This document shows, piece after piece, positions 62 to 15,246 of a stretch of 20,000 bases of DNA. The translations under genes were made by a program, and so were the position numbers. Each line of letters begins with the position of its first letter. Within the stretch, counting starts at the first letter, position 1. Source of the DNA: an uncultured virus (IMG/VR IMGVR_UViG_3300032323_002211) (Duplodnaviria > Heunggongvirae > Uroviricota > Caudoviricetes); IMG/VR virus record IMGVR_UViG_3300032323_002211; one strand, written 5' to 3'. The notes below the pieces were generated by a model. That model made no database searches, was not told where the DNA came from, and saw only the letters and a program-made list of their open reading frames with translations.

Positions 62-2548
62 TTATACCAATAACTTTAATGCCTCTAAAGTATCTTCAGC
101 GTCCTTATCACCCGTTTCAGCTAAGATTTCTAAAGCAGCTATTGTTTCTAGTATTTCCTCTCTAGTAGCCTCAGCTTCAGGTTCGGGTTCTATGTCTTCA
201 GGCTCAGGTACAACTATGGGGGGTGCAGGTTCTTCAACAATCGGAAGTACCGCCTTTTGCTCCTCTAGTTTGGTTTCCATTTCGTCTACAGAAGGCTCTA
301 CGACCTGAGCTACCAATTCGTCATTTTTAACGAAATCCACAACCTTTTCCCCACCTTTCTTTTTGTCCACAACCATACCTAGACCTGTTTCCCCGCTATT
401 TCCTTTGTAGTCTATGTATTGGTCTTCTCTAATATCAGAAGGTGGAACGAAGTTTCCTATATCATATTTTCTCTTAGCTACTTCAACTATTTTCTCCATG
501 AAAGTACCAATATATTCTAGCTCCTTTCCTGCAGGATAAGGTCTTTGGTAGCCTTCAGCAATAATGTCTTCCATAGGAATATCAGCAACTAGATAGTTAC
601 TTACCCTATCCGCATCAAATAGCTTTTTTAGAATCCATGTTTCCCATGAACGAGCAAATAGCTCCACAGCACTTGTCCAATATTTTGTTCTACGAACACC
701 ACCCACTATATATTTTTTATATGTAGATTTTGGGTCTAAATACACATATTGAAAGTAAGAATAAGCTGTTTTATGGTACAAATAGCTAGTTTTTAGCTTC
801 ATTGGTACTTCATAGCTTTCAAGTCCGAAATGCTTGATTACATAGCCAAATACCTTCACTTGACTAGAAAGTAGTGATTCATCCACTACTGCTAAATCGT
901 CAAGCCCATTTAACGTTTCCTCTATAGTAGCTTTGATTTCTACATCTTTAGTTCTATAACTTCCTCTAATGTAGTATTTGGGTGTTTCTTGACTTTCAAC
1001 AGCCATGAATTTCATAGGAAGTCTTGGTGTGTATAAGTCATTACCATTATAAATAAAACTAAAAAGCTCTTTAAAAAGAGTTTTCAATTCAGAATCAGGG
1101 CTGTAACCTTCAGAGGCAAACTGATTAGTTGCTCTTTGTTGGTCTAGCTCCACTATTACGTTGTCGAAGTAGTGACCCCATTCGTGAGCTACAGACCCAT
1201 CACCATTACTTTTCGTTAGGTTAATATCTTTTGTTTGAGGGAAATAGGCAGCAGCGTGTCCTTTGCGTCCTTTTGCCCCGAAAGCTATTTTTAACTTACC
1301 TAGCTGATTTGCTTTTTTGATGTCAATATTTATGATTTCAGCCATGTCGCTGATGGCAGCCAAGAAGTGTTTTGTATGCTCTTTACTCCATTTATCGTCT
1401 ACATATTGACCATAATTAACAGCAGCAAACCCAAACTTATTAACAACTTCTGCAGGTGTTATTTCAGGTATTTTATAACCCCCTGTTCTTTTAATGTAAG
1501 AAAGTGGAGCTTTTGTATTGATAGCCTGTTCTTTAGGAGCAGCAGTATCTTTCTTTGTTTCGTCCTTTGTTTCAGCCTTTTCAAACCATGACCAATTGTT
1601 AGGTCTAGGTGCTGCACTTAGTTGCTTTGTTGCATAACTCATTCTTGACCTTCTCAATTCATCTTCTGAGTATTTTATTAGAAAATCTCTGAATTTCTCT
1701 ATGTCAGCCTTATAAATTGATTGGTTGTATGGACTAATTCTCCAAGAAGTCTCCATAGTTAGTAAAAGCTGCTTTCTGTCCATTTCTTTATACCTAGCTA
1801 CTTTTTTCTGAAATGACTCGACAGCGTTCATTTCCCTTTCTTTAAGGGCATCAATAATCTCTTTTGATTTTTCTTCGCTTATAGGTTCTTTTTCATCTGC
1901 TTCAAGCCAAATAGCTGCTGCTGCATCACTACGTCTAAACAAAATGTTTTCAAATCTTGAACTAAAAAGCTCGTTTATGACCTTTCTAACAAGAGTGCTA
2001 CTACCATACATGAAAGCCAATCTTATGTTTCTATTCTGCTTGAGGGATTCTTCAATAGCTTTTTTTGTCACTTCGTCTGAAGTATCATAGTCGGGATTGA
2101 AAAATGTCATTATAACTTCGGGCATAGTCATATCCCTATAAAATTCAGAGAGCTTTCTAATATCTTCTACATTAAAACAGGCATCTAGCTTATTTTGAAG
2201 GTTCTCCAAAAAAAGTACATAGCTCCTTCTCATTCCCTTTTCGTCTTTAGGTCTTGTAGGAACAGCCTCCCTTAGCTTTACTTTTAGGAACGCTGCACCC
2301 GAAGTAACACCATTTTCCTTTTGAGCTTTTACGTCAATAGGTGACCAAACGTTGTCCTTTTTAACCATGTTGTATGCCATTACAGCATCGTCCTCTAAGT
2401 CAGTTAGGACTTTGGAATTGATTAATCTAAAGGCTGCCTTTTCCTTTTTAGTCTGTGCTACACGACCAATATCTTTGAACTCTCTATTAGATTGCTTTTC
2501 CTGTAGCCTTTGTTCTACCTGTTCCTTTATTTGATTTAAGTCAGCCAT
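62..2548 (-). CDS. Large polyvalent-type phage protein with LPD1-like zincin metallopeptidase domain
   Basis: 828-aa ORF. FGFAAVNYGQY...LKIAFGAKGRKGHAAAYFP...INLTKSNGDGSVAHEWGHYFD (HExxH at 1172-1186) plus a distal YWTSAVELFARSWE matches the LPD1 signature as I recall it. Ends in a Pro/Glu-rich linker and a short helical tail. Confidence 0.8.
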   Translation of the reverse strand: MADLNQIKEQVEQRLQEKQSNREFKDIGRVAQTKKEKAAFRLINSKVLTDLEDDAVMAYNMVKKDNVWSPIDVKAQKENGVTSGAAFLKVKLREAVPTRPKDEKGMRRSYVLFLENLQNKLDACFNVEDIRKLSEFYRDMTMPEVIMTFFNPDYDTSDEVTKKAIEESLKQNRNIRLAFMYGSSTLVRKVINELFSSRFENILFRRSDAAAAIWLEADEKEPISEEKSKEIIDALKEREMNAVESFQKKVARYKEMDRKQLLLTMETSWRISPYNQSIYKADIEKFRDFLIKYSEDELRRSRMSYATKQLSAAPRPNNWSWFEKAETKDETKKDTAAPKEQAINTKAPLSYIKRTGGYKIPEITPAEVVNKFGFAAVNYGQYVDDKWSKEHTKHFLAAISDMAEIINIDIKKANQLGKLKIAFGAKGRKGHAAAYFPQTKDINLTKSNGDGSVAHEWGHYFDNVIVELDQQRATNQFASEGYSPDSELKTLFKELFSFIYNGNDLYTPRLPMKFMAVESQETPKYYIRGSYRTKDVEIKATIEETLNGLDDLAVVDESLLSSQVKVFGYVIKHFGLESYEVPMKLKTSYLYHKTAYSYFQYVYLDPKSTYKKYIVGGVRRTKYWTSAVELFARSWETWILKKLFDADRVSNYLVADIPMEDIIAEGYQRPYPAGKELEYIGTFMEKIVEVAKRKYDIGNFVPPSDIREDQYIDYKGNSGETGLGMVVDKKKGGEKVVDFVKNDELVAQVVEPSVDEMETKLEEQKAVLPIVEEPAPPIVVPEPEDIEPEPEAEATREEILETIAALEILAETGDKDAEDTLEALKLLV

Positions 2549-2550
2549 GA

Positions 2551-5500
2551 TTATTTGAAATTAGATTTACCAAATTGTGATTGCATAATTTTAGCGTCTT
2601 CGTCTTCGTCACCATCAATAAAACCACCCATAGCATAGCTTTTTTGAGGTAATTTGTTCTTTACAAGTGCTATTGCAGGTTCTAGTTCCCTTTCTGTGCT
2701 AATATTTTTGATTGAAATTGATTTGTCTTTGAAGTATTTACTTAATTCCTCAAAAGTAAGGTGTTTATCCTCCATTTTAGACTGAAGCGGACTTTTAGGC
2801 TTGTTTACAAGGTTTACTCCGTCATCTGAAAAAGATACCACTTCCCATTGGTCATTACCACCACTTGAATAGACTATTGTACCTACAGCTAACATAGGCA
2901 TACCATCTGAAAGACCTAAATCGTCTGCAGTAATGTAATGCTCTTCTACCATCATTTCCTCCATTACAGGCTCTAATTCAACTTCAACCTCAACTTCTAT
3001 TTTAGGGAATAAATGGCTTTTAAGTTCTGTTTGGTAGTCGGTTTCCCCGCCTTCAGCCATTTTTCCACCTTTACCAAATTTTGCGACTTTCTTTAATTTA
3101 ATTGAATATTGTGCTTGTCCTGTATTTTGGTTGTATTCCATATTTACTGAATCGGCATCGAAAAATTCAGCACTTGAAGTAGCCTCTTTATGTAATTTTT
3201 CAGCCATGCCTGTCGTATAATTCTCATCAAGTCCAATAATTAAAGAGTTTGAATCTTCGTCAATATAATAAAACTTTATAGGCTGTACCTTCTTTATAAA
3301 TATTTCTATTTTTTGAGCTAAAAGTTGATTTGTTAATGAATGTAAATCACCTGTTATTCCACCTTCAGCCATAGAGTGTTTACAACCGCATGAGCTAACT
3401 ATTTCATGGTCTTTCATCATTTTACCACCATACTTGTATTCTTTCCCACTTGTATAAATACTTTCAGGAATATCCCCGCCATCAGCAAAAGAGACACCCC
3501 CACCGCTTTCATTGATTTTTGAAAGGATTTCCCTGTTGGTCATCATTTTGCCTTCAAACTCACGCTTTTGATTGTCAGATACGGCATTACGGGTAATAAC
3601 CACCTCACCCCCCTCCATTTCTAAAGGTTGGTTAGTTGATTTGTTTACAGCTTTGATACCGCCTTCGCTATGTCTTTTACCAACTAAAACACCGCCAACG
3701 TTACCGCTGCCATGTGAGAAGTAGTCTTTTACGTTTTTATCGTCAGGGTTTATTTCGCCACCTGCTTTATAGTAACCACCTTTTTCCATTTTGTTGTTTT
3801 TATGTTTTCTGACCATAAAGCCATTTGGCAATAATTCAAAGCCAAACTTCTCATAGTAAGATATTAGGTATTCTCTAGTTATTTTTTCCTTTTTAGAGCT
3901 ATCCTTTATATGATTGTGTCTAGGTATCGGCTCTAAATAAACATCTATTTCGTTCTTATCTGCTAATTCTAAAAGCTCCTTTAGTTTTTCTTTACCATCT
4001 ACACTTTCGTCCCTTTTCTCAAAAACGTCCAAAATCACATGATTATCCTCACTTGACATTTTACTGAACTCGTTTGGTACTGATACCATAATGGTCATCT
4101 TATCCGATACACCATTTTTGTACCAATCTTGGTATTGTTTGTAAAACTCTGTAATACCCCCCTGAGCCATTTTATTTTGGCTTTCCATGTATTCTAGTTT
4201 CTCATAGTAGTCAATCATTTCGTCTAAATGCTGTAAAGCAATAGTTTCTTGAACGGTTGGGTTATCTGAGTGTTCTGATTCTGTTTTCATGCCCTTTCTG
4301 AGCTGCTCTTCGGCATAATCTAAAGGAACATCCTTTTCTTTGGCTATTTGTTCAATAGTCTTTGAAGGCTTAAATAACTCAAGACCTAACTCCATTTTGA
4401 TTAAATCGTGCTGAGAAGGAATGGCTAAAGTACCCCCATCAGCGTAATTATCTTTTATAAAAACAGCCTCTTGGTTATCAAATTCCTCTTTTAGAATGTC
4501 TTTTCTTGACCTTGACTCAGATATAGTACCATACTTTTTATCTAATTGCTTGAAATAGATATAATTACCATCGTCTTTTCTGTCCTTGTATGTGATTGTA
4601 TCATTCTTATTTACAATCGTATTTATGTATTTACGATTGTCTTGAACAAACTCGAATTTAAGACCTTCTTTGAAAAAAGAGCTATCCTTTTTCCATAAAA
4701 CAACACTAAAGTCATCTACTACTTCTAGCTCTTCGCCTACTTTGTCCCCTACTTTAATAGTTCCATTAAAAGATATTTCAGTTAAATCAGGATTGTCTTT
4801 AATGATTTCGAGAACCTTTCTTTGACTTGGATTTTTAGATTCAATAAATTCAGAATCCCTTTCAGATTCTTTTTTGTAAGAATAACCATCATTTCTTGCT
4901 ACAACAATTTTAGACCCCAACTTATACCATTCTGCTATTTTCTTTTCTCTTTCCTTCCTTACTGATTCAATTAGATTTTCAGTTGGACTTACAATTAAAC
5001 CACCATCTGCATACATTTTCGGGTTGCTTAGGTAATATATCGCAACTTCTTTGGCTGCTTTTAGTGTTTTGTAGCCACCAATAGTCTTTTGTGGCTTACC
5101 ATCATGCTGCATATTTAATATCCACAATTTGTCAAGTTTGCTGTAATGTATACTTGCATCTTTGTATTTGTATTCAGTATCTTCAAAAGATTCATCTATA
5201 CCCAAATATTCTTTTTTTATTCTCTTAAAATCATCTGCTGCACCACCATCTGCCATAAATCCTATTGGCTCAGAGTCATAAAATGTTCTGTTATCAAACC
5301 CGCATTTGTGACAAATGTATTTATCAGATTCATCAGAATCAGAGGTGTTCCAATGCCATCCACAATTAACGCAAGTGATTTCTTGACCTACAGAACCGCC
5401 ATCAGCCATCTTATCTGAGCTGAAGTTTTGCATAATTTCGTAATAGCCCTTAATCTTTGTACCATCTGCAAGGGTTGCATTTTCTAAATGAGTTATATAT

Positions 5501-7560
5501 CTATAGTGAAAAGAAACTATGTTATACCCCGCTGCAGGTATGGCTTCAGTAACAAAATCAAAATAACTGCCATCGGCAAAATTAAATCTGTAACGTCCCT
5601 CAAATCCTTTTTTACCAACTTTTAGACTTTCTCTACTTACATCAGATATTGGCTTACTAACTCTAGGGAAGTTATCCAATACAGCCTTCAAAAATCTGTA
5701 TTTCAAAGACTCAGCATAGTCTAAAATGATTTTATCCATTATAGGCTTATAATCAGATTTTAGCTCTAAGTCTTTATAGAAATTTTCAATTATTGGATAA
5801 CCTCTATAGTCCTTAGTTTTAACTATTCTTGGCTGACTTTCAATAAAAATGTCTCTCCAAAATACTATTGCTGTTTGTAACTTTTCTAAGTTTACCCCAC
5901 CTTCTTTTTGACTTAGCTCAATATATTCTTTTATCAAACCTTCAAATCTCTCAGTTTCTCTTTCAATTACAATCTTTTCAACGTCCTTAAAGTCTTCAAA
6001 AAGCTGCTTATATAGTGATTTGAATACATCTTGATTCATTTTTGGTATCTTGGAAAGTATTTCATCCATTTGCTTTTTTGCCTCTTTTTTGAGGTTACTT
6101 TCCTGTGAGAATACCTTTTTTGGAACTTTTATTCCATGCTCTTCTGCTATCTTTATTACTTCGTCTTCTGTAATTTCCCCATTTTCTAGAAGTTTTTTAT
6201 AAGTGTCATCTTCTATAGCCCTTCTTATTTCAGGCTTATTTGACTTTTTGTATTCAGAATCTAGATTATCAAAAATTACTTTATCTGCAAAAAACTTGTT
6301 TAAATCTTTGAAAAAGGAAACATTTTTTTCTAGTATGTCTTTGGGGGTTGGTTTAGGTATTTCCATTTTCTCATCAGCATATCTACTGAATTTTATATAA
6401 TTCCACTTTTTAATTGCCCCTTTCTCACTATCAGTATCAAAACGTCTTCCTGTGTTTTTTCCTTCTAAAGCTCTACTTAATACCTGCTCGTATGTTGTCT
6501 TGTAAAGACCGCTGTAACTTGTATTTGCTAAATACTCACTATTTTTTCTAGTGAATTTCTCATATTCTTTTAAAAGTGGAATAACCCTGTCCTCATACTC
6601 TGATTTAGTCATTAAGTATGCAGGTTTACTAGTATCGTCAGTTTTAGCAGCCTCTATCTTTTGTGCGTCTATAATCTTTTGTTTTTCCCTCTTTATCTTA
6701 TTTTCAAGGTCTCTTGCCTTTTTTCTTTCCTTTTCAGCAGCAGCTCCTCTATTGTATTTTTCATAATCTTCTTTAGCTCTCTCTCGTCCGAAATCGGAGT
6801 CATCATAAACTACATAACCATAATATTCTTTGGGCATTTTGTTGTACCTAAGTCTATAACCTAAAAGTCCTTCTTTTGTCAAATCTTCAGATTCTTCCCT
6901 ACCTAAATCATTTGTGGATGTATAAACACCAACAATCGTATAAGCCTCTTTGCTTTTCTTGGTTTCGCCACCATCGGCTAGTTTTGAATCAGATAACATT
7001 TTTTCGTATTGTTTTTTTGTAACTAAATTATACCCCCACCTTTTAGCCATATCCTTTACTACACTTAACCTTTTATCACCATCAACATTGTAGTAATTAT
7101 TGTCCCCATCTTTAGTAATTAACCAATAAAAACCACCTTCCCATTTTTCAATAAAGGCAAACTTTTTTACATCACCTCCATCAGCCATTAAGTCATCGTC
7201 CTGAACGTATGCAGCTTTAACCTGCTGACCTGCCTTCTTTTTAAGGAATTTATTTACTCTAGCAAAGCCCCATGCTTGTCTGCTATTTGGAGCTCCACCT
7301 GTAATTGTAGGTCTGTGAGAAGTAGAATAAGCACCCATACCCCTACGCATAACTGCTTTTAGGGTTGCAACGCTTACTTTATTTTTTGGGTGACTTTCGT
7401 TGTAATCTTTTGCCTTTTGGCTTAAAGTGGCTAGTATGCTTTCATTTAGCTCAATCCCTTTGGCTGAGGCTTTAGAACTAGCACTTCCGACCTTGTTTTT
7501 GTCAGAGCCATAAATTCTGTCCTTTTTAGGAGCAGGGGTTTTTGATAGGCTTTTCGGCAT
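2551..7560 (-). CDS. Large modular (polyvalent/polyprotein-like) protein with about 15 MADGG-like motifs; DUF5824-like N-terminus, Zn ribbon, DUF5661-like and GNAT-like modules
   Basis: 1669-aa ORF. N-terminal LKAVMRRGMGAYSTSHRP...QAWGFARVNKFL; CVNC...CHKC; QLRKGMKTESEH...IALQHLDEMIDYYEKL; LLELADKNEIDVYLE...LISYYEKFGF; GKRHSEGGI...EMEGGEVVI. Confidence 0.75.
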   Translation of the reverse strand: MPKSLSKTPAPKKDRIYGSDKNKVGSASSKASAKGIELNESILATLSQKAKDYNESHPKNKVSVATLKAVMRRGMGAYSTSHRPTITGGAPNSRQAWGFARVNKFLKKKAGQQVKAAYVQDDDLMADGGDVKKFAFIEKWEGGFYWLITKDGDNNYYNVDGDKRLSVVKDMAKRWGYNLVTKKQYEKMLSDSKLADGGETKKSKEAYTIVGVYTSTNDLGREESEDLTKEGLLGYRLRYNKMPKEYYGYVVYDDSDFGRERAKEDYEKYNRGAAAEKERKKARDLENKIKREKQKIIDAQKIEAAKTDDTSKPAYLMTKSEYEDRVIPLLKEYEKFTRKNSEYLANTSYSGLYKTTYEQVLSRALEGKNTGRRFDTDSEKGAIKKWNYIKFSRYADEKMEIPKPTPKDILEKNVSFFKDLNKFFADKVIFDNLDSEYKKSNKPEIRRAIEDDTYKKLLENGEITEDEVIKIAEEHGIKVPKKVFSQESNLKKEAKKQMDEILSKIPKMNQDVFKSLYKQLFEDFKDVEKIVIERETERFEGLIKEYIELSQKEGGVNLEKLQTAIVFWRDIFIESQPRIVKTKDYRGYPIIENFYKDLELKSDYKPIMDKIILDYAESLKYRFLKAVLDNFPRVSKPISDVSRESLKVGKKGFEGRYRFNFADGSYFDFVTEAIPAAGYNIVSFHYRYITHLENATLADGTKIKGYYEIMQNFSSDKMADGGSVGQEITCVNCGWHWNTSDSDESDKYICHKCGFDNRTFYDSEPIGFMADGGAADDFKRIKKEYLGIDESFEDTEYKYKDASIHYSKLDKLWILNMQHDGKPQKTIGGYKTLKAAKEVAIYYLSNPKMYADGGLIVSPTENLIESVRKEREKKIAEWYKLGSKIVVARNDGYSYKKESERDSEFIESKNPSQRKVLEIIKDNPDLTEISFNGTIKVGDKVGEELEVVDDFSVVLWKKDSSFFKEGLKFEFVQDNRKYINTIVNKNDTITYKDRKDDGNYIYFKQLDKKYGTISESRSRKDILKEEFDNQEAVFIKDNYADGGTLAIPSQHDLIKMELGLELFKPSKTIEQIAKEKDVPLDYAEEQLRKGMKTESEHSDNPTVQETIALQHLDEMIDYYEKLEYMESQNKMAQGGITEFYKQYQDWYKNGVSDKMTIMVSVPNEFSKMSSEDNHVILDVFEKRDESVDGKEKLKELLELADKNEIDVYLEPIPRHNHIKDSSKKEKITREYLISYYEKFGFELLPNGFMVRKHKNNKMEKGGYYKAGGEINPDDKNVKDYFSHGSGNVGGVLVGKRHSEGGIKAVNKSTNQPLEMEGGEVVITRNAVSDNQKREFEGKMMTNREILSKINESGGGVSFADGGDIPESIYTSGKEYKYGGKMMKDHEIVSSCGCKHSMAEGGITGDLHSLTNQLLAQKIEIFIKKVQPIKFYYIDEDSNSLIIGLDENYTTGMAEKLHKEATSSAEFFDADSVNMEYNQNTGQAQYSIKLKKVAKFGKGGKMAEGGETDYQTELKSHLFPKIEVEVEVELEPVMEEMMVEEHYITADDLGLSDGMPMLAVGTIVYSSGGNDQWEVVSFSDDGVNLVNKPKSPLQSKMEDKHLTFEELSKYFKDKSISIKNISTERELEPAIALVKNKLPQKSYAMGGFIDGDEDEDAKIMQSQFGKSNFK

Positions 7561-9271: not shown

Positions 9272-9294
9272 AGTAATTAATTTTAATTGTTTTT
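9272..9294 (-). repeat. Gene-junction element copy
   Basis: Exact consensus between the PhyH stop and the TTG at 9271. Confidence 0.9.
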
Positions 9295-10018
9295 ACGGTA
9301 TTAAATTTGAATCTAAATATGATACCAAAGTTCCTTCATTTAAATAAAATGGATATTTGTTAGCAGCTTTACTCCTACAAAATCCGTTCATATAAGTCAT
9401 CCTATCCTGTGGGGACATATTCGGCTCACTGCCATGTACAATCTTTACAGACCAAATCAATACACTTCCTTTTGTTGCAGTATACTTTGTACCTTTTCTA
9501 CCTTCTCTATTGAATATTCTAAGATTTGAAGGAGGCTCAATTATTGATTCTTTATGTGAGCCATCTATAAACTCTATTGCTCCATTTTCTTCAGTTATGT
9601 CATCTACAGCTATGATTGTCTGAAAATAGTCATCCTCTACGTCTTCGTTGAAAATATTTGACTCTCTAAACATGATGTCCTGATGCCATGCGAATTGGTC
9701 ATTATCACCTGCCTCTCTGAAATATATTTGATTATTAATTTGTCTAACGTCTTGTCCAATAAACTCTTTAACTAAGTTTACCATTCTGTCATCTACCCTT
9801 ATCTTGTTTAGATACGAATTACATAAAGCAGGGAAAAATATTAGACTTCTTTTATTATAAGCGGTCTGTGATGGTTGGTGTGGATAGCCTGAATTTGTAA
9901 TATCTATATCATTTACGCTGTATGCTTGTCTTTTAATTTCAGAACACTCTTCAGATGTGAAGACATTAGGTATTACGACAATTCCATTTTTCTTGTATAG
10001 GTCTTTGTATTTTTCCAA
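9293..10018 (-). CDS. PhyH-family Fe(II)/2-oxoglutarate dioxygenase
   Basis: 241 aa. YKKNGIVVIPNVF, WHQD (HxD), IAVDDITEENGAIEFIDGSH and HGSEPN...R motifs. TTG start. Confidence 0.9.
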   Translation of the reverse strand: MEKYKDLYKKNGIVVIPNVFTSEECSEIKRQAYSVNDIDITNSGYPHQPSQTAYNKRSLIFFPALCNSYLNKIRVDDRMVNLVKEFIGQDVRQINNQIYFREAGDNDQFAWHQDIMFRESNIFNEDVEDDYFQTIIAVDDITEENGAIEFIDGSHKESIIEPPSNLRIFNREGRKGTKYTATKGSVLIWSVKIVHGSEPNMSPQDRMTYMNGFCRSKAANKYPFYLNEGTLVSYLDSNLIP

Positions 10019-10041
10019 AGTAATTAATTTTAATTGTTTTT
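10019..10041 (-). repeat. Gene-junction element copy
   Basis: Exact consensus. Contains the stop of the 67-aa ORF and abuts the TTG at 10018. Confidence 0.9.
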
Positions 10042-10233
10042 TGTTCTTCCTAATGATGGGTTATTTTGTAAAGATATTTGTTTATTATCCAAAGTCCATA
10101 TATCACCATCGTCCATAGCACATACAAATAATAGATAGTGCTCCTGTGAATAGTCTATAACTATAAAAGCAAACCCTTTCATTTGGTCAGATTTCCTGAC
10201 TATTGGTATCATTGGATTTAGTTGTAGTATCAT
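10030..10233 (-). CDS. Small conserved-type phage hypothetical protein
   Basis: 67 aa. ILQLNP.IP...G.A...IDYSQEH.L...GDIW pattern resembles small phage proteins. Tightly packed with neighbours. Confidence 0.75.
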   Translation of the reverse strand: MILQLNPMIPIVRKSDQMKGFAFIVIDYSQEHYLLFVCAMDDGDIWTLDNKQISLQNNPSLGRTKNN

Positions 10234-10422
10234 TTAATTGTTTTGTGCTAAGTATCTGTTGTATGCTCTTGTGTATGCCTCTCTATTAAATGCTTCAAAT
10301 GGATTTTCCTGATTAACACAATCCTCATAAGTCAGATAAAATACATCGTGGTCTCTTGTATACAGATATATTGTTCTTCGTAAAAAATTGTCTTTCAAAC
10401 TTACTTGGTATATAGTGTCCAT
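10234..10422 (-). CDS. Hypothetical protein
   Basis: 62 aa, abutting both neighbours. Ends in a half junction element (AAAACAATTAA-ATG). Confidence 0.65.
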   Translation of the reverse strand: MDTIYQVSLKDNFLRRTIYLYTRDHDVFYLTYEDCVNQENPFEAFNREAYTRAYNRYLAQNN

Positions 10423-10838
10423 TACCTAAAAATTAAATAGCCACCGCCAAGTCCTGCAATAAAAGTTCCCCATTTTGCAAGTTTCTGCCTTCTAGCTATA
10501 CTCCTTTGAAGTTTATACTTTTGGTCTAGGTTGTCTATAATCTTTTTATAGTTGTCTATTGAAGCCTCATAGCTCCACATCATTTTATTATGCAAAGCGT
10601 CCTTTTCTTTCAAAAAGGTAATTACTGAGTCTTTTAGAACGATACGACCTTCTAACAAACTTACCTTTTCATTGGTTAAGTCAAGTTCCTGTTTCACTAG
10701 TTTCCCCTGCTCTATTTTGACAATAGCAGCCTTTAGCTGTGAATTAGGCAGACAAGTTACTGAGTCATTTGAGGTCTGAGAAATACCTCGAAATGCTGTC
10801 AGAATTGTAATTACGAACAATATCTTTAGCTTTTTCAT
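10422..10838 (-). CDS. Exported coiled-coil protein, possible spanin-like partner
   Basis: 138 aa. Signal peptide MKKLKILFVITILTAFRGISQ, coiled coil and hydrophobic Gly-rich C-terminus. Overlaps the upstream gene by 74 bp. Confidence 0.6.
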   Translation of the reverse strand: MKKLKILFVITILTAFRGISQTSNDSVTCLPNSQLKAAIVKIEQGKLVKQELDLTNEKVSLLEGRIVLKDSVITFLKEKDALHNKMMWSYEASIDNYKKIIDNLDQKYKLQRSIARRQKLAKWGTFIAGLGGGYLIFR

Positions 10839-11136
10839 ATTTTGGTTTTATGTCGTTTATCTTTTTATCTATGGCAGAAACCTTACTTATCAGCTCCCTT
10901 TCCATACATTCTATGGTCTCAATTTGCTTTTGCCTTTCTATTAGCTGAAGAGAAATGGAATCCCTTTCAGCCTTATAAAAGTCATTTTTACGGAGTAGAC
11001 TATCATTAATCTTCTCGATTTCTTTAATTTTATTTTTCAGGTCTTTAGTTCCTGTGTCAAATAGTCCAACGTACCCAATAACTACTATAATGATTACTAG
11101 GACGTAGGTAAGCCAATTTTGTTTTAATTTATTCAT
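10765..11136 (-). CDS. N-terminally anchored coiled-coil protein, i-spanin-like
   Basis: 123 aa. TM segment WLTYVLVIIIVVIGYVGLF followed by a long heptad-rich helix. Confidence 0.6.
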   Translation of the reverse strand: MNKLKQNWLTYVLVIIIVVIGYVGLFDTGTKDLKNKIKEIEKINDSLLRKNDFYKAERDSISLQLIERQKQIETIECMERELISKVSAIDKKINDIKPKYEKAKDIVRNYNSDSISRYFSDLK

Positions 11137-11357
11137 AGTATCTCTTCTTTTAAGGAATATAGCTCCACCGCCACATTCTCGTCAAATTCTTTTACAAATT
11201 TCGTGCTAGTTTTCTCATTTTCCATTCTTATTTGAAAGCAGGAAAAGGGTTTTTCACCGAAAAAGTACTTTATGTATACAGCCGACTTCTCTACTATATT
11301 ACAAATGGTACAAGTAGCTAGTCTGTTATTTATATTTATTTTTAATGTCCTCACCAT
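11133..11357 (-). CDS. Hypothetical protein
   Basis: 74 aa, ATGA overlap with the next gene. Single CxxC. Confidence 0.55.
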   Translation of the reverse strand: MVRTLKININNRLATCTICNIVEKSAVYIKYFFGEKPFSCFQIRMENEKTSTKFVKEFDENVAVELYSLKEEIL

Positions 11358-11559
11358 AAATAGCGTTGTGTTTTAGCATCAATTCTCCTATTACGATATT
11401 AGTACTTATTCCGAATATAATCAAAAGTGTAAAGTTCATATCGGAGAGATAAGCCTGTTTGAAGTACGTTAAAATTAGGTAAGTACAGATAACCACTATA
11501 TTAAATATAAATAGTGCTATAAGAAAATATTTCATTTGTTTATTTTGTATTGGTATCAA
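11326..11559 (-). CDS. Small two-TM membrane protein (holin-like topology)
   Basis: 77 aa, two hydrophobic segments and a basic C-terminus. Confidence 0.55.
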   Translation of the reverse strand: MIPIQNKQMKYFLIALFIFNIVVICTYLILTYFKQAYLSDMNFTLLIIFGISTNIVIGELMLKHNAIYGEDIKNKYK

Positions 11560-12226
11560 TTGATATAACCACCGCTTCAGATATGCCGTCTTCCTTCTTG
11601 TCGTAAGGGGTCACATAAACCTCTTCATTTGGCATTCCACCCCACTTTTTGATAAACAGCTCTTTGTTCTGTATATAGTTATTCAAAAGAGGGTCTTTAA
11701 GTATCGTTTGGGAGTTTAGGTAGACATCGGGGTTTAAGTCATCTTCGTATTTGATTTTAACACCTGCTAGTTTCATTCTGTAGGCATAATCATTGTCTTC
11801 AAAATAGCACTTCTCAAACCCTTCGTCAAACTTACCAACTGAGTCGTAAACTGACTTTCTAAGCACAAAAGAAGACCAATTGTAAGCGGAACGGCAAACC
11901 TGAAAGGTATTGTCATTTCCTTTTTTTAGCATCTTTTTTATAATGTCTTCGTCCTTTTGTAAGATTACGTCATCATTGAGAATCAAAAAGTTAGTTTCCC
12001 CAAAGTAAGAGGCATAGGCAATCAGACAGTTCCAAGACCTTGCTACTCCCATCGGTTCAGGGAATCCTAAAATGGTAACATTTGGATTTGAGCTACCTAG
12101 CTCCTGCTTACCGCTGTCTACTACGATAATTCTCGTATTTGGGTAGGCTTTATCATAGTGGTCTAACGCTTGAATTAAAAGGTCTTTCCTATTGATTGTA
12201 GGAATAAGAATACAGAAATTACTCAT
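11540..12226 (-). CDS. GT-A fold glycosyltransferase (GT2)
   Basis: 228 aa. ILIPTINRKDLL, IIVVDSG, GVARSWN, LILNDD, VGKFDEGFEKCYFEDNDYAYR. Confidence 0.9.
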   Translation of the reverse strand: MSNFCILIPTINRKDLLIQALDHYDKAYPNTRIIVVDSGKQELGSSNPNVTILGFPEPMGVARSWNCLIAYASYFGETNFLILNDDVILQKDEDIIKKMLKKGNDNTFQVCRSAYNWSSFVLRKSVYDSVGKFDEGFEKCYFEDNDYAYRMKLAGVKIKYEDDLNPDVYLNSQTILKDPLLNNYIQNKELFIKKWGGMPNEEVYVTPYDKKEDGISEAVVISIDTNTK

Positions 12227-12235
12227 GGCTTTGTT

Positions 12236-12853
12236 TTAGTATTTATTAAAATTTTGTCTATGTCTTCTATAATATAGCAGTCCCTGACTCACATGGCTCA
12301 CATTTGCTCCTGCCACTTTCAGCTTATTCCAAAGGTTCAGGTCTTCATCAGTTCTAGGTGAAGTTCGGTTATGTTCATATCCCCCTAAGCTCAAAGCTAG
12401 TTTTACGTCATACATCATACTTCCATGATGCTGACCCTTCCTTGACCAATACCAATCCCCAAAGTGAAGATTTACCTCTCTTGGATAAAACGTCCGAATT
12501 TCGTCCCTTAGCTCCCCTGTTACTACTATGTCACAAACTATTACGTCTGTTTTCTCTTTGGAAAGCTGCTCTAGGGTATCAGGTCTAAGCCAATTATCTG
12601 CCCCCACAAACATAACCATATCTGTGGTAACTCGCTCTAACATATCCTGAAAATTTGCCACTATACCCAAATTTTTGTCTCTGAGCACAAATTCTACTTC
12701 AGGGTACATACTGACTAGGTGCTTACAATCCCCCGCTCCGTCATCTACGAAAAGTATCGTATTAAACTTTTTAGTCTGACAAAGTACTGATTCTATACAG
12801 TTAGCTGCCAAATGACCATAGTGGTATGAAGCTATTACACAGGTGTATGTCAT
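12236..12853 (-). CDS. GT-A fold glycosyltransferase (GT2)
   Basis: 205 aa. VIASYHYG...CIESVLCQT, FVDDG, NLG, FVGADN, EDLNLW, LYYRRH. Confidence 0.9.
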   Translation of the reverse strand: MTYTCVIASYHYGHLAANCIESVLCQTKKFNTILFVDDGAGDCKHLVSMYPEVEFVLRDKNLGIVANFQDMLERVTTDMVMFVGADNWLRPDTLEQLSKEKTDVIVCDIVVTGELRDEIRTFYPREVNLHFGDWYWSRKGQHHGSMMYDVKLALSLGGYEHNRTSPRTDEDLNLWNKLKVAGANVSHVSQGLLYYRRHRQNFNKY

Positions 12854-13110
12854 AATTTATCAATTATTGTTCTTACTTGTTTCCAATGGTCTATTTCAAT
12901 ACCATTTTTTAATAGCTCCCTATTATAGGATTCAGCAATATATTTAGCCATATCCTTAACAGCCCTATCAATATTAATTTCAGGTATTAAATTCAAATTA
13001 TGAGGGAAACATCCCCATGTACCTGTTTGAATTATAGACCTGCAATCTCTTAATAAGATTAAAGCATCTTGATTGGGTGTAAATTCCATGTCATTCTGTT
13101 TCATTGTCAT
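12850..13110 (-). CDS. Hypothetical protein
   Basis: 86 aa, overlapping both neighbours on the coding strand. Confidence 0.6.
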   Translation of the reverse strand: MTMKQNDMEFTPNQDALILLRDCRSIIQTGTWGCFPHNLNLIPEINIDRAVKDMAKYIAESYNRELLKNGIEIDHWKQVRTIIDKL

Positions 13111-13360
13111 GATATTTTGTGTATTGATTATAGGCTTTTGGGTTTTCGTCCTTTAAGTGCTGTAGTGAATTTAGGATTCTGTCCAATTTCTTATTATTGA
13201 TATACAGCTCATGTGTTAAAGAATCTACTAACTTATCTTGACTTTTGATATTAGTCTTGATTTCTCCGTTCTGCAGGGCTAATACAATAACCCCGACAAA
13301 TGCTATTGAGGATAAAAGAAGTACCCAAAGTACGTTCTCTAGTTTTTTTAATATTGACAT
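13091..13360 (-). CDS. Membrane-anchored coiled-coil hypothetical protein
   Basis: 89 aa, N-terminal TM (VLWVLLLSSIAFVGVIVLAL). Confidence 0.7.
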   Translation of the reverse strand: MSILKKLENVLWVLLLSSIAFVGVIVLALQNGEIKTNIKSQDKLVDSLTHELYINNKKLDRILNSLQHLKDENPKAYNQYTKYHDNETE

Positions 13361-13371
13361 AATTAAGGTTT

Positions 13372-14001
13372 TTATTTTTTAAGCCATATACTAGCTCCCT
13401 TTACAGCTCCTAAATTACTAATTATATTATTCGGCACAAAATCGTATTTAGACTTTAATTCCTCATTATTGTTTTCTGATATTAAATAGTTGAAGGCTAA
13501 TACCTCGTAATCATGTACTATTTTAATTATAATATCGTTTTCGTTCCATAAACGCATATTAACGTCATTAAGCCATTCTTTAGGATAACCATACATACCG
13601 AAATAATCATGAAAGTGTATTAATACCCCTTTTTTTAATTTTGGCAGAATTTCATGAATTAAGAAATGTACGTCACTTCCTGTTTCATATATATGGCTTG
13701 AATCTATAAATAGAATGTCGTTTACGTCTAGTACGTCAAAGGTATCAACGTATACGTCCTGAACGTATGAACGTACATATTCAATATTTGGGTAGATTAC
13801 TCTAGGTAACGGGTCTATGGCAGTCAGCTCGACATTCGCCCTGCTAGATAACCATGTGGAATAACCACAGCCGATTTCAATTACCCTTTTAGCTTTTGAA
13901 AGAAAATGCCAATAGGTAAGGGCATCAAGGGGTGGAAATTGGTCATTGTGCCAATCGAAGTCTTTTGGAAAGTCAGCTATGTCTAGGTCTAGTGGTTTCA
14001 T
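13372..14001 (-). CDS. Class I SAM-dependent methyltransferase (Methyltransf_24-like)
   Basis: 209 aa. RVIEIGCGYST, AIDP, DILFIDSSH, ILPKLKKGVLIHFHD, WNE. Confidence 0.88.
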   Translation of the reverse strand: MKPLDLDIADFPKDFDWHNDQFPPLDALTYWHFLSKAKRVIEIGCGYSTWLSSRANVELTAIDPLPRVIYPNIEYVRSYVQDVYVDTFDVLDVNDILFIDSSHIYETGSDVHFLIHEILPKLKKGVLIHFHDYFGMYGYPKEWLNDVNMRLWNENDIIIKIVHDYEVLAFNYLISENNNEELKSKYDFVPNNIISNLGAVKGASIWLKK

Positions 14002-14010
14002 TTAACAGGT

Positions 14011-14523
14011 TTAAAGGTAAGGTCTGTATACTTTGTAACACCAATCTTGTTCAGAGCGGTTTTGACTTCCCTGAGTAACGCTCCAAGCCATTTCGTAACC
14101 TGCCTCTTTAACGCATTCTATTACTAGATTATTGTAGTTACCGTATGGATAAGCAAAGAACTTCATTGGGAAAGGAGGGGTTATTTCCTGCATGATTTCA
14201 CTTCTGCTCAGTTTGGTTAGGTCGGGATGTGACCAAGTATGCCACCCAATTTCAAAATCTAAATTGTCACACATTTCGTGAATTTCGTCCCATGTGCAGT
14301 ACTTCTCTAGTTTGGGTACATGGGCTAAATCAAACTTGTTGTCCTTTCCTACATAGTCACCCATGACAAAGAAAACACCCCGTTTACCAACTAAAGTGTC
14401 TCTGTTCTCGTATACATTTCTATAGATTCCATCAAACCCTATCAGGTCATTACAGGCTAGTATCTGCTCTCTAGTATGATAGTTTGAGTGGTTTTCAGTT
14501 CCAATGTTGTGTGCTAGTACCAT
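14011..14523 (-). CDS. Polysaccharide deacetylase (NodB/CE4 family)
   Basis: 170 aa. GFDG (variant of TFDD), FFV, EIGWHTWSHPDL, FAYPYG, VKEAGY. Confidence 0.85.
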   Translation of the reverse strand: MVLAHNIGTENHSNYHTREQILACNDLIGFDGIYRNVYENRDTLVGKRGVFFVMGDYVGKDNKFDLAHVPKLEKYCTWDEIHEMCDNLDFEIGWHTWSHPDLTKLSRSEIMQEITPPFPMKFFAYPYGNYNNLVIECVKEAGYEMAWSVTQGSQNRSEQDWCYKVYRPYL

Positions 14524-15002
14524 TATCTTATTTTATAAAGGGTTGTTCTTTGGGTAAATTCCCTATAATTAAAATTAATTGTTTTTATCGGTTCACCAAA
14601 GTCATAGTCTATAAGCCATTCTGCTATACCTGATATTAGGATATGCTTACTACTGCATTTCATTATCATATCGTAAATAGCTTTGTGGTCATATTGAGGA
14701 TAAAGCGTTCCCGTACTGACTACTAGGTCAAATTTGCCTTCAGGCTTAGTTACAGCCTTTACTATTTGGGGTAGTCTAGACATAGCGTTATCTGATAGGT
14801 CAAGACCAAAGATTTCTGCTGCAGGTAACTTTTCAGTTACAAAGCCTTCGCCACAGCCAATATCTATTGCTCTTTTGTACAAAGGTTCGTCTTCTAGTAG
14901 TCCTAGTATAAAGTCCCTTCTTTTAAAATCTTCAGGGTTTGAGAAATACCCCCATTGGTCAGGTTTATCGTACCAACGTTCTAAATCTTCTTTTGTCTGC
15001 AT
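14523..15002 (-). CDS. SAM-dependent methyltransferase, NodS-like
   Basis: PDQWGY...YKRAIDIGCGEGFVTEKL...GLDLSDNA, KFDLVVSTGTLY. Start revised to ATG 15002 (MQTKEDL), just after the upstream stop. Confidence 0.8.
   Translation of the reverse strand: MQTKEDLERWYDKPDQWGYFSNPEDFKRRDFILGLLEDEPLYKRAIDIGCGEGFVTEKLPAAEIFGLDLSDNAMSRLPQIVKAVTKPEGKFDLVVSTGTLYPQYDHKAIYDMIMKCSSKHILISGIAEWLIDYDFGEPIKTINFNYREFTQRTTLYKIR
14566..14586 (-). repeat. Junction element, TT-spacer variant, inside a CDS
   Basis: AAAAACAATTAATTTTAATTA within the 3' end of the methyltransferase, about 43 nt upstream of the deacetylase ATG. Confidence 0.7.
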
Positions 15003-15003
15003 A

Positions 15004-15246
15004 TTATTTAGTATAAATGTGTAAAGGTGTGTGTTCCCCAACATAAGCACCTAGAATATTAAAGTCAATCCATTCTAAAGCATCTACTTCAGTCCAATCA
15101 GGGTTTTGTTTTAGTAGGCATTCAGATAGCTTATCCAAATCGTATACTGCAACATAATCGGTAGTAAAGCCAATAACTGCTTCATCTAGGTCATCCCAAA
15201 GAATAGCATCGGGGTTGTTTTCTGTTATTTTTTCAATTATGGTCAT
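15004..15246 (-). CDS. Small acidic phage hypothetical protein
   Basis: 80 aa. LDEAVIG...AVYD...EVDALEWIDFNILGAYVGEHTP pattern resembles aquatic phage proteins. ATG abuts a junction element. Confidence 0.8.
   Translation of the reverse strand: MTIIEKITENNPDAILWDDLDEAVIGFTTDYVAVYDLDKLSECLLKQNPDWTEVDALEWIDFNILGAYVGEHTPLHIYTK

Follow-up and report, generated by a model that had tools for sequence, protein, structure and literature searches.

Why would a virus repeat a short Gly-Gly peptide some fifteen times along a single giant protein? The question is raised by a 20,000-nucleotide stretch of an uncultured virus of the Caudoviricetes (IMG/VR record IMGVR_UViG_3300032323_002211), here called the window, in which one gene encodes P0001, a protein of 1669 aa. 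Its peptides of the form [MYFL]xxGG, referred to below as seams, join a row of mutually dissimilar modules (Table 1). An earlier note, made from the sequence alone, had suggested that a phage protease cuts P0001 at these peptides into small virion-packaged or injected effectors, that the peptide is a repeated docking tag, or that it acts as a joint for the shuffling of modules. Our analysis shows that the seam is the standard border between modules and the joint at which they are exchanged, and that its conservation, which extends over more than 1000 clusters of one family, is at the level of the protein. As the best explanation we tentatively favour a polyvalent cargo or effector chain, the seams of which are read by a partner, probably a protease.

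The seam is a conserved border between exchangeable modules

All fifteen copies listed in the earlier note are present in P0001. The low ends of these 15-nt motifs, in plus-strand numbering, lie at positions 7174, 6967, 5395, 5242, 4999, 4432, 4156, 3775, 3757, 3475, 3424, 3358, 3064, 3046, and 2623. A sixteenth match, YSSGG at 2857-2871, is probably incidental, because a low-confidence model of the C-terminal half places it in a beta strand. In 20,000 composition-preserving shuffles of P0001, [MYFL]xxGG occurred on average 1.54 times (standard deviation 1.22, maximum 9) compared to the 16 observed, and not one shuffle reached 16. The narrower pattern [MYFL]AxGG is found 11 times (shuffle mean 0.08), and ADGG seven times (shuffle mean 0.03). 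Furthermore, Met, Tyr, Phe, or Leu stands three positions before the first Gly (position -3) in 16 of the 25 Gly-Gly dipeptides, against a background of 18.5%. The sequences between the motifs are unrelated, as a BLAST comparison of P0001 with itself gave no off-diagonal match at E ≤ 10.

A strict form of the motif, [MYFL][AEK]xGG, was present in all 358 relatives examined, that is, in 120 of 120 longer homologues (median 0.72 per 100 aa), in 120 of 120 shorter homologues (median 1.07), and in 118 of 118 new representatives at 50% identity (median 0.71). The logo of 1552 unique GG contexts gives the consensus [Y/M/F]-[A/E/K]-[D/K/E]-G-G-x-[V/I/L/T], with Y (.29), M (.19), and F (.15) at position -3, A (.26), E (.22), and K (.17) at position -2, and V, I, and L (.18 each) or T (.12) as the second residue after GG. 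In an alignment of 28 sequences the GG pairs are invariant and their flanks variable. Both the logo and the alignment bear out the claim that conservation acts at the protein level. Tandem seams, spaced by six residues, account for 47 of 1739 intervals in the family. The search for shorter homologues listed only multi-module proteins of 267-911 aa, hence it offers no clean single-module natural ends to compare with the seam, and small representatives of module 10 (156-285 aa) may end at contig edges, so that no conclusion is drawn from their termini.

The codons do differ between seam copies, as had been claimed, but this is only part of the picture, as the motif has a codon bias. GCT makes up 60 of 76 Ala codons in the motif, compared to 216 of 495 in the remainder of these genes (p = 3e-7), GAT makes up 35 of 35 Asp codons, compared to 549 of 778 (p = 3e-4), and Gly is skewed towards GGT (p = 0.002). 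These counts combine the window gene with the giant genes of three related loci (L001, L002, and L005), and the p-values are inflated, since orthologous sites of the three close relatives were counted repeatedly. The skew could come from shared descent or from gene conversion at the joints. A separate idea, that translation starts internally at the seam Met, was rejected, because Tyr and Phe are as common as Met at that position of the logo.

The motif is almost restricted to giant cargo genes, as found by scanning three related contigs, in which these genes flank a peptidase gene. The giants of contig G002 hold 25 and 10 strict motifs (35) and the rest of the contig one, those of G001 24 and 18 (42) vs one, and those of G003 8, 7, and 3 (18) vs one. 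Over 29 loci, the density of strict motifs per 100 aa was 0.66 in seam-rich open reading frames (ORFs), 0.042 in other ORFs, and zero in the 3140 aa of ORFs for zincin-like metallopeptidases (MPTases).

The position of the seams between domains is best seen in the N-terminal half of P0001. The AlphaFold model of this half (860 aa) has a mean pLDDT of 70.5, and all five of its seams (starting at aa 125, 194, 718, 769, and 850) lie in segments with pLDDT < 50 between confident domains, segments that make up 189 of the 860 residues. The model of the C-terminal half is poor (mean pLDDT 39.3). There, 12 of 12 motifs fall in stretches below 50, but so do 604 of the 830 residues (73%), therefore this model carries little information on the seams. 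In the confident model the motifs thus lie in predicted flexible linkers. Three units had been described as bracketed by motifs. The zinc ribbon (C730-x2-C733...C750-x2-C753) is indeed enclosed by the motifs at aa 718 and 769, and DUF5661 (residues 1070-1127) by those at aa 1039 and 1131. For the third, "GNAT-like", unit the bracketing holds, but Pfam recognised no family in it at E ≤ 1. A language model places it near phage GNAT clusters (scores 0.85-0.88), which we take as a lead only.

Two close IMG/VR relatives, L001 and L002, show the exchange of modules directly. Their orthologues (2053 and 1366 aa) share blocks that are 82-92% identical and differ by whole modules, with the breakpoints on the motif. 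For example, the L002 junction ...QDDDL-MEKGG-SVGQEITC joins module 1 of the window straight to its zinc ribbon, at the point where the window has the seam at aa 125-129, and L001 has 180 extra residues sitting between two YENGG copies. A similar picture emerges from an all-against-all BLAST of 120 family members. High-scoring segment pairs, which are not independent of each other, started within 8 aa of a seam in 46.6% of 28,576 internal cases, compared to 15.4% of random positions, and ended there in 46.2% of 32,230, compared to 15.7%. Moreover, module order is permuted among family members. The segment ends agree with the N-terminal model in placing the motifs at domain borders, and relatives insert, delete, and re-join modules there, as the shuffling proposal had it.

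What may read the seam

A search of 5.8 billion proteins yielded 7997 scored candidates, 415 of which are homologous to P0001 at E ≤ 1e-3. Many of them carry ART-PolyVal (PF18760), Zeta_toxin, DNA methylase, GNAT, ParB, topoisomerase, or LPD11 domains. Because of these domains, and of the adjacent gene for an MPTase with an LPD1 domain (P0002), P0001 belongs, judged by sequence, to the polyvalent proteins, a class described by Iyer et al. (2017). Many unrelated domains (2-15 or more in the class) are combined in one phage-encoded polypeptide, here at least 12 mutually dissimilar modules, and the architecture varies fast, as seen in relatives of 1366, 1669, and 2053 aa with permuted modules. 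The hallmark domains of the class (MPTase, ART-PolyVal, and LPDs) are found in the homologues and in the adjacent gene and not in P0001 itself, on which Pfam recognises only DUF5661 and DUF5824 (the latter when module 1 is scanned alone) and in which none of the Pfam LPD and ART models matches. To judge by gene context, P0001 would be packaged in the virion and delivered into the host with the DNA: in G002, genes for an SLT transglycosylase and a glucosaminidase follow a second giant gene.

A seam with a fixed aromatic residue or Met, two Gly, and a fixed aliphatic residue would be read by a partner. This partner would most likely be a protease that cuts at or beside the seam, and thereby releases the modules, either ahead of packaging or once they are injected. 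We consider such cleavage plausible, with a probability somewhat short of even. MPTases have been proposed by Iyer et al. (PMC5512222) to process polyvalent proteins into functional units, and HExxH followed by Asp three residues later marks, according to the same text, a widespread phage-type MPTase. P0002 carries this signature (HEWGH..D) together with LPD1. The core of P0002 (aa 343-480) is similar to MPTase regions of giant phage proteins in 193 records (tblastn, E down to 3e-14), from 933W-type (e.g., the LPD5-domain protein of 933W), Bacillus, Pseudoalteromonas, and other phages, so that by sequence it appears to be of the phage type. It is the only recognisable peptidase, is itself free of strict seams, and its gene is flanked by two seam-rich genes in this lineage, which makes it the best candidate for a reader in this phage.

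The pairing of peptidase and seam was modelled with aa 330-720 of the MPTase and a two-seam fragment of P0001 (aa 700-790), in three runs and with three controls. The predicted complex had a median ipSAE of 0.46 (runs 0.55, 0.00, and 0.46), compared to 0.00 for the best control, at least 24% of contacts were common to the runs, and the pLDDT of the partner was at least 43. Of the 157 solved complexes in the calibration, 116 attained the mark, as did 2 of the 215 mismatched pairs; at values of 0.60 or under, only 18 of the 157 passed, plus both passing mismatches. The prediction thus gives weak support to a peptidase-seam complex.

Several observations weigh against cleavage by this or any phage protease. 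A P0002-like MPTase ORF is found at 3 of the 29 module-10 loci, all of this lineage (another HExxHxxD protein is found at two further loci), and an MPTase profile matched none of 10 related whole contigs at E ≤ 0.01, six of which are at least 90% complete. The seam logo is identical with and without a nearby MPTase, and no other recognisable peptidase family was found in the scanned ORFs of the related contigs G002, G005, and G011. Because relatives keep the same seam without that peptidase, the true reader may be another factor, and the simplest story, in which a phage protease cuts the chain, is weakened. Furthermore, one L002 junction (TAEMGMEIPSQ), the only such case seen, has lost its GG, which is therefore not indispensable at every joint. 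The motif density of 0.042 in other ORFs is not under a rough composition-based estimate of about 0.016 (a hand calculation), therefore other proteins show no sign of avoiding the motif. Examples from other systems point in the same direction. The virion RNA polymerase of N4, ArdC, and TraC1 have MPTase domains and are yet delivered uncut (PMC5512222), and a crAss001 cargo protein reaches across capsid and tail, in a main text from which the words cleaved, cleavage, and proteolytic are absent (PMC10172136). Finally, the parallel with phage T5, described below, rests on four residues.

If another factor reads the seam, it could do so everywhere. The seam would then be the processing code of the whole cargo family, and one conserved factor, different from the neighbouring metallopeptidase, would cut every copy. 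We find this extension of the cleavage reading doubtful. If it is true, each giant gene is a polyprotein that yields a dozen or more injected effectors, into which new ones are plugged by recombination at the seam code.

The alternative that survives best is an uncut hinge, which would serve at the same time as a joint for recombination. Here, the seam would be a flexible linker that lets the modules fold and unfold alone for passage through the tail, and its shared coding would give in-frame microhomology, in which case its conservation would reflect descent and selection for viable junctions and not a protease. The gain, loss, and permutation of modules exactly at the seam, its position in low-confidence linkers, and its persistence without any recognisable peptidase all fit this alternative. 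Seam codons are more uniform than the rest of the genes (GCT and GAT, as counted above), so that the copies have a ATGGCTGATGGTGG-like stretch in common. A RecT-type annealing protein is encoded in the related contig G002, and gp45 of crAss001 is described as threading through the portal in the same main text free of cleavage-related words (PMC10172136). However, a pure flexible linker needs neither a fixed aromatic residue or Met at position -3 nor a fixed aliphatic residue two positions after GG beside unrelated modules, and a multi-domain MPTase protein of the same phages (1473 aa, in L005) has no seam at its own domain borders. The codon counts also take in orthologous sites, and synonymous differences between seam copies are common, thus the stretches of DNA identity between copies are short. 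On balance, we regard an uncut hinge as unlikely, though it deserves to be kept in mind.

A multivalent tag for docking or packaging, by which the cargo would be loaded into the particle and held there uncut through contact with a chaperone or with part of the virion (the inside of the capsid, the portal, or the tail lumen), seems improbable to us. Specific conserved side chains, frequent tandem pairs, the confinement of the seam to putative cargo genes, and its independence of the peptidase would suit such a tag, as would the SLT and glucosaminidase genes adjoining the cargo genes in G002, and an AAA+ ATPase with a partner of ~527 aa at 15 of 29 loci, which takes the slot of the peptidase gene in G005 and G011, the contigs examined for gene order. 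Nevertheless, no binding partner was recognised, the structural genes of these phages escape recognition, and the virion location of the protein comes from context only. In addition, the 15-26 copies per protein are far above known capsid-targeting signals; capsid targeting in T4 reportedly uses one N-terminal signal. An adenovirus- or African swine fever virus (ASFV)-type polyprotein, cut right after GG by a clan CE (Ulp1/adenain-like) or JAB protease, is very improbable, since the resemblance of GG and its upstream hydrophobic residue to the adenovirus site (M/I/L)xGG|X is superficial (the hydrophobic residue, at P4 in the adenovirus site, lies three residues before the first Gly here and would be P5, one position further from GG), and the prohead, JAB, or Ulp1/C48 proteases that the earlier note had suggested were absent from the scanned ORFs of G002, the closest 90%-complete relative (89 scanned with Pfam and 91 with PHROGs, of 119), as were clan CE and JAB proteases from the window's own ORFs.

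The cutting of polyvalent proteins has been predicted since 2017 without a defined site, and the seam, a short and conserved peptide, marks the junction at nearly all module borders. It thereby turns a long-standing prediction of processing into a simple and cheap bench test, and serves as a rule by which hundreds of giant orphan phage proteins can be divided into functional modules. If the chain is uncut, the seam is still a natural portable linker for the in-frame exchange of effector cassettes, which would explain a fast diversification of the arsenal.

Modules of P0001 and their genomic surroundings

Table 1. Seams and modules of P0001 and the genes next to it; nucleotide positions are those of the window
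Feature	Residues (aa)	Nucleotides	Strand	Basis or remark
P0001, polyvalent (cargo/effector) protein, 1669 aa, at least 12 modules joined by seams		2551..7560	-	ORF and translation
Module 1, DUF5824-like helical domain, near-universal in the family	1-124	7189..7560	-	Pfam PF19141
Seam MADGG	125-129	7174..7188	-	In pLDDT < 50 linker 116-132
Seam LADGG	194-198	6967..6981	-	In pLDDT < 50 linker 191-202
Module 3, large mixed alpha/beta unit of unknown fold	199-717	5410..6966	-	pLDDT mostly 77-92
Seam MADGG	718-722	5395..5409	-	In pLDDT < 50 linker 717-725
Module 4, CxxC-x16-CxxC zinc ribbon	723-768	5257..5394	-	Cys 730, 733, 750, 753
Seam MADGG	769-773	5242..5256	-	In low-pLDDT stretch 763-833; homology to L002 ends here
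Seam YADGG	850-854	4999..5013	-	L001 has the 180-aa extra module at exactly this point
Seam YADGG	1039-1043	4432..4446	-	Matching L002 junction without GG
Module 7 with DUF5661	1044-1130	4171..4431	-	Pfam PF18905, E 1.4e-8, aa 1070-1127
Seam MAQGG	1131-1135	4156..4170	-	M292, G295, G296 of aligned piece invariant, 28 sequences
Module 8, possibly GNAT-like	1136-1257	3790..4155	-	Language-model lead only
Double seam MEKGG-Y-YKAGG	1258-1268	3757..3789	-	Motif scan
Module 10, core GKRHSEGGI...EMEGGEVVITRNA	1269-1357	3490..3756	-	Covered by mean 115/119 listed homologues
Seam FADGG	1358-1362	3475..3489	-	G522, G523 of aligned piece invariant, 28 sequences
Seam YKYGG	1375-1379	3424..3438	-	Kept in small stand-alone relatives
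Seam MAEGG	1397-1401	3358..3372	-	Motif scan
Double seam FGKGG-K-MAEGG	1495-1505	3046..3078	-	L001 and L002 each insert extra modules between the two
Last seam YAMGG	1642-1646	2623..2637	-	G806, G807 of aligned piece invariant
Conserved 23-aa acidic C-terminal tail FIDGDEDEDAKIMQSQFGKSNFK, after the last seam		2554..2622	-	Tail type recurs at C-termini of many family members
P0002, zincin-like metallopeptidase (MPTase) + LPD1, 828 aa, next gene downstream, without strict seam		62..2548	-	Sequence and Pfam
HEWGH of the MPTase, then D462	455-459	1172..1186	-	HEWGHYFD (aa 455-462) invariant in 4 aligned relatives
LPD1 domain of the MPTase protein	619-693	470..694	-	Pfam PF18796, E 5.8e-11
Upstream glycosyltransferase, ~424 aa		7842..9065	-	PHROG 2170, E 1.6e-32

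Module 1 is covered on average by 103 of the 119 listed homologues and has pLDDT values of 61-84 over aa 34-80. Scanned alone, it matches PF19141 with E 1.1e-5 (26 bits, cutoff 25). In module 3 Pfam found no family at E ≤ 0.01. The model of the N-terminal half had no Foldseek match in the PDB at E ≤ 0.001, and a wide VIA-align search gave a best Z of 6.1, with common helical arrangements only. The zinc ribbon of module 4 is covered on average by 93 of the 119 listed homologues. In five related loci (L035, L039, L048, L049, and L050) the copies of DUF5661 show an HExxH-like HE[LM]EH, and the window copy reads SESEH.

In module 10, of ~90 aa and near-universal, K, H, E, and Gly-Gly stand at invariant positions (GK.H..GGI.A...QP.E.EGGE). 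The module was left unfolded by AlphaFold (pLDDT 23-33), and in relatives it is found at the N-terminus, in the middle, or at the C-terminus. It is present in 1017 representative clusters at E ≤ 1e-3 and in 579 at E ≤ 1e-10 (clusters at 50% identity), and matches no Pfam family at E ≤ 1.

Beyond these family members, P0001 as a whole is hard to place. It matched no PHROGs family at E ≤ 1e-3, PDB sequence searches with P0001 and P0002 gave nothing under E 0.1, and a megablast of the giant gene against cultured phages found no match. A locus search with the MPTase alignment, for which N-terminal patterns were used, returned only the three known loci. By tblastn, only the DUF5824 and DUF5661 pieces were found in cultured phages, in seven records. 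A scan of genome contigs gave three matches, all in metagenome-assembled genomes from unrelated phyla, therefore the host cannot be inferred.

On the other side of the peptidase gene, just past the left edge of the window, the relatives have a second giant gene (L001 18707-23611, 1634 aa; L002 16643-22924, 2093 aa). These second giants contain 24 and 25 strict seams, many of them in tandem GGYMA[DK]GG pairs, and have neither a Pfam family nor BLAST similarity to P0001. In contigs G005 and G011, the position that the metallopeptidase gene takes in this lineage, between two seam-rich genes, is occupied by an AAA_5-type ATPase (~455 aa) and its ~527-aa partner, the pair counted above (e.g., L053 15870-19015 and L058 10733-13738). 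A homologue of the upstream glycosyltransferase occurs at 21 of the 29 related loci, and in the window and its close relatives it lies directly upstream of the cargo gene.

Further upstream, at 9293-15050, the window is dense in sugar-modifying genes (a PhyH dioxygenase, two GT2, methyltransferases, and a polysaccharide deacetylase), with small genes beside them. Contig G002 adds GT9, GT1, a sulfotransferase, an APS kinase, and a PAPS reductase-like gene at 9-25 kb and 71-77 kb. It also encodes, at 26815-35256 (L010 6815-15256), a probable tail fibre of 2813 aa, which combines collagen triple-helix repeats with an S74 chaperone domain at its C-terminus. The 177 GG of this protein include no strict motif and are unrelated to the seam.

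CheckV rates G002, G005, and G011 as 90-100% complete, and IMG/VR lists inverted terminal repeats for G005. In these contigs (L009-L013 and L053-L062), neither PHROGs nor Pfam identified a terminase, portal, major capsid protein, or prohead protease. Because no structural hallmark genes were recognised in near-complete contigs, the lineage looks like a group of poorly charted phages.

Comparison with known systems

Viruses with cleaved internal proteins offer several points of comparison. The proteases of adenovirus and ASFV (pS273R) process polyproteins at GG|X. They share with the seam a Gly-Gly and an upstream hydrophobic residue at domain borders, and differ by the register, which is off by one residue, and by the clan CE protease, which the scans of G002 did not find. 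Prohead proteases cut at L/I-x-E (T4 gp21) and at S/A/G-x-E (phiKZ gp175). In these systems, one phage protease reads a short, degenerate, repeated peptide in several virion-internal proteins, which resembles the reading proposed here, whereas the motif is a different one and no prohead protease is recognisable in our phages.

The cargo proteins gp45 and gp46 of crAss001 (Bayfield et al. 2023, PMC10172136) are, like P0001, large and partly unstructured, and are carried in the particle and ejected before the DNA. As a model for the seam crAss001 was rejected, because only 2 strict motifs are found among the 21 GG of gp45, and none in the other structural and cargo genes scanned. Module 10 has a weak language-model lead (0.83) to the crAss_CARG1 family; P0001 gave no Pfam match to this family (module 10 at E ≤ 1), in a Pfam set for which the presence of that model is unconfirmed.

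Tape-measure proteins provide examples of cut virion proteins. In lambda, gpH is cut in a glycine-rich region, with enzyme and exact site described as unknown (PMC12617516), so that no comparison with the seam is possible. Linares et al. (2023; PMC10038345) place the cut of the T5 tape-measure protein, pb2, after R1127. The T5 record reads ...FVPR|AEGGMMY at this point, the only A[DE]GG in that protein. As proposed for the seam, the cut lies beside a Gly-Gly/small-residue peptide that separates functional parts of a virion protein. Unlike in P0001, there is a single site, and Arg takes the place of the aromatic residue or Met. P0001 itself shows no homology to tape-measure families, neither among PHROGs nor between module 10 and the C-terminal part of pb2 (pb2C, aa 1100-1219; BLASTP E 26).

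The closest relatives in kind remain the polyvalent proteins, a class known since Iyer et al. (2017), for which we have not found the seam motif in print. The main text of that study (PMC5512222) has no mention of a GG motif, linker, diglycine, or glycine. A full-text literature search for the motif strings gave no phage paper among the matches listed, and among those listed for polyvalent proteins and cleavage sites, none was about such a site by its title or the start of its abstract. In our phages the peptidase is a separate protein, absent from most relatives, which sets them apart from the published class. They share with it the giant size, the unrelated domains, the strongly varying architectures, and a phage-type zincin MPTase with LPD1, here encoded next door.

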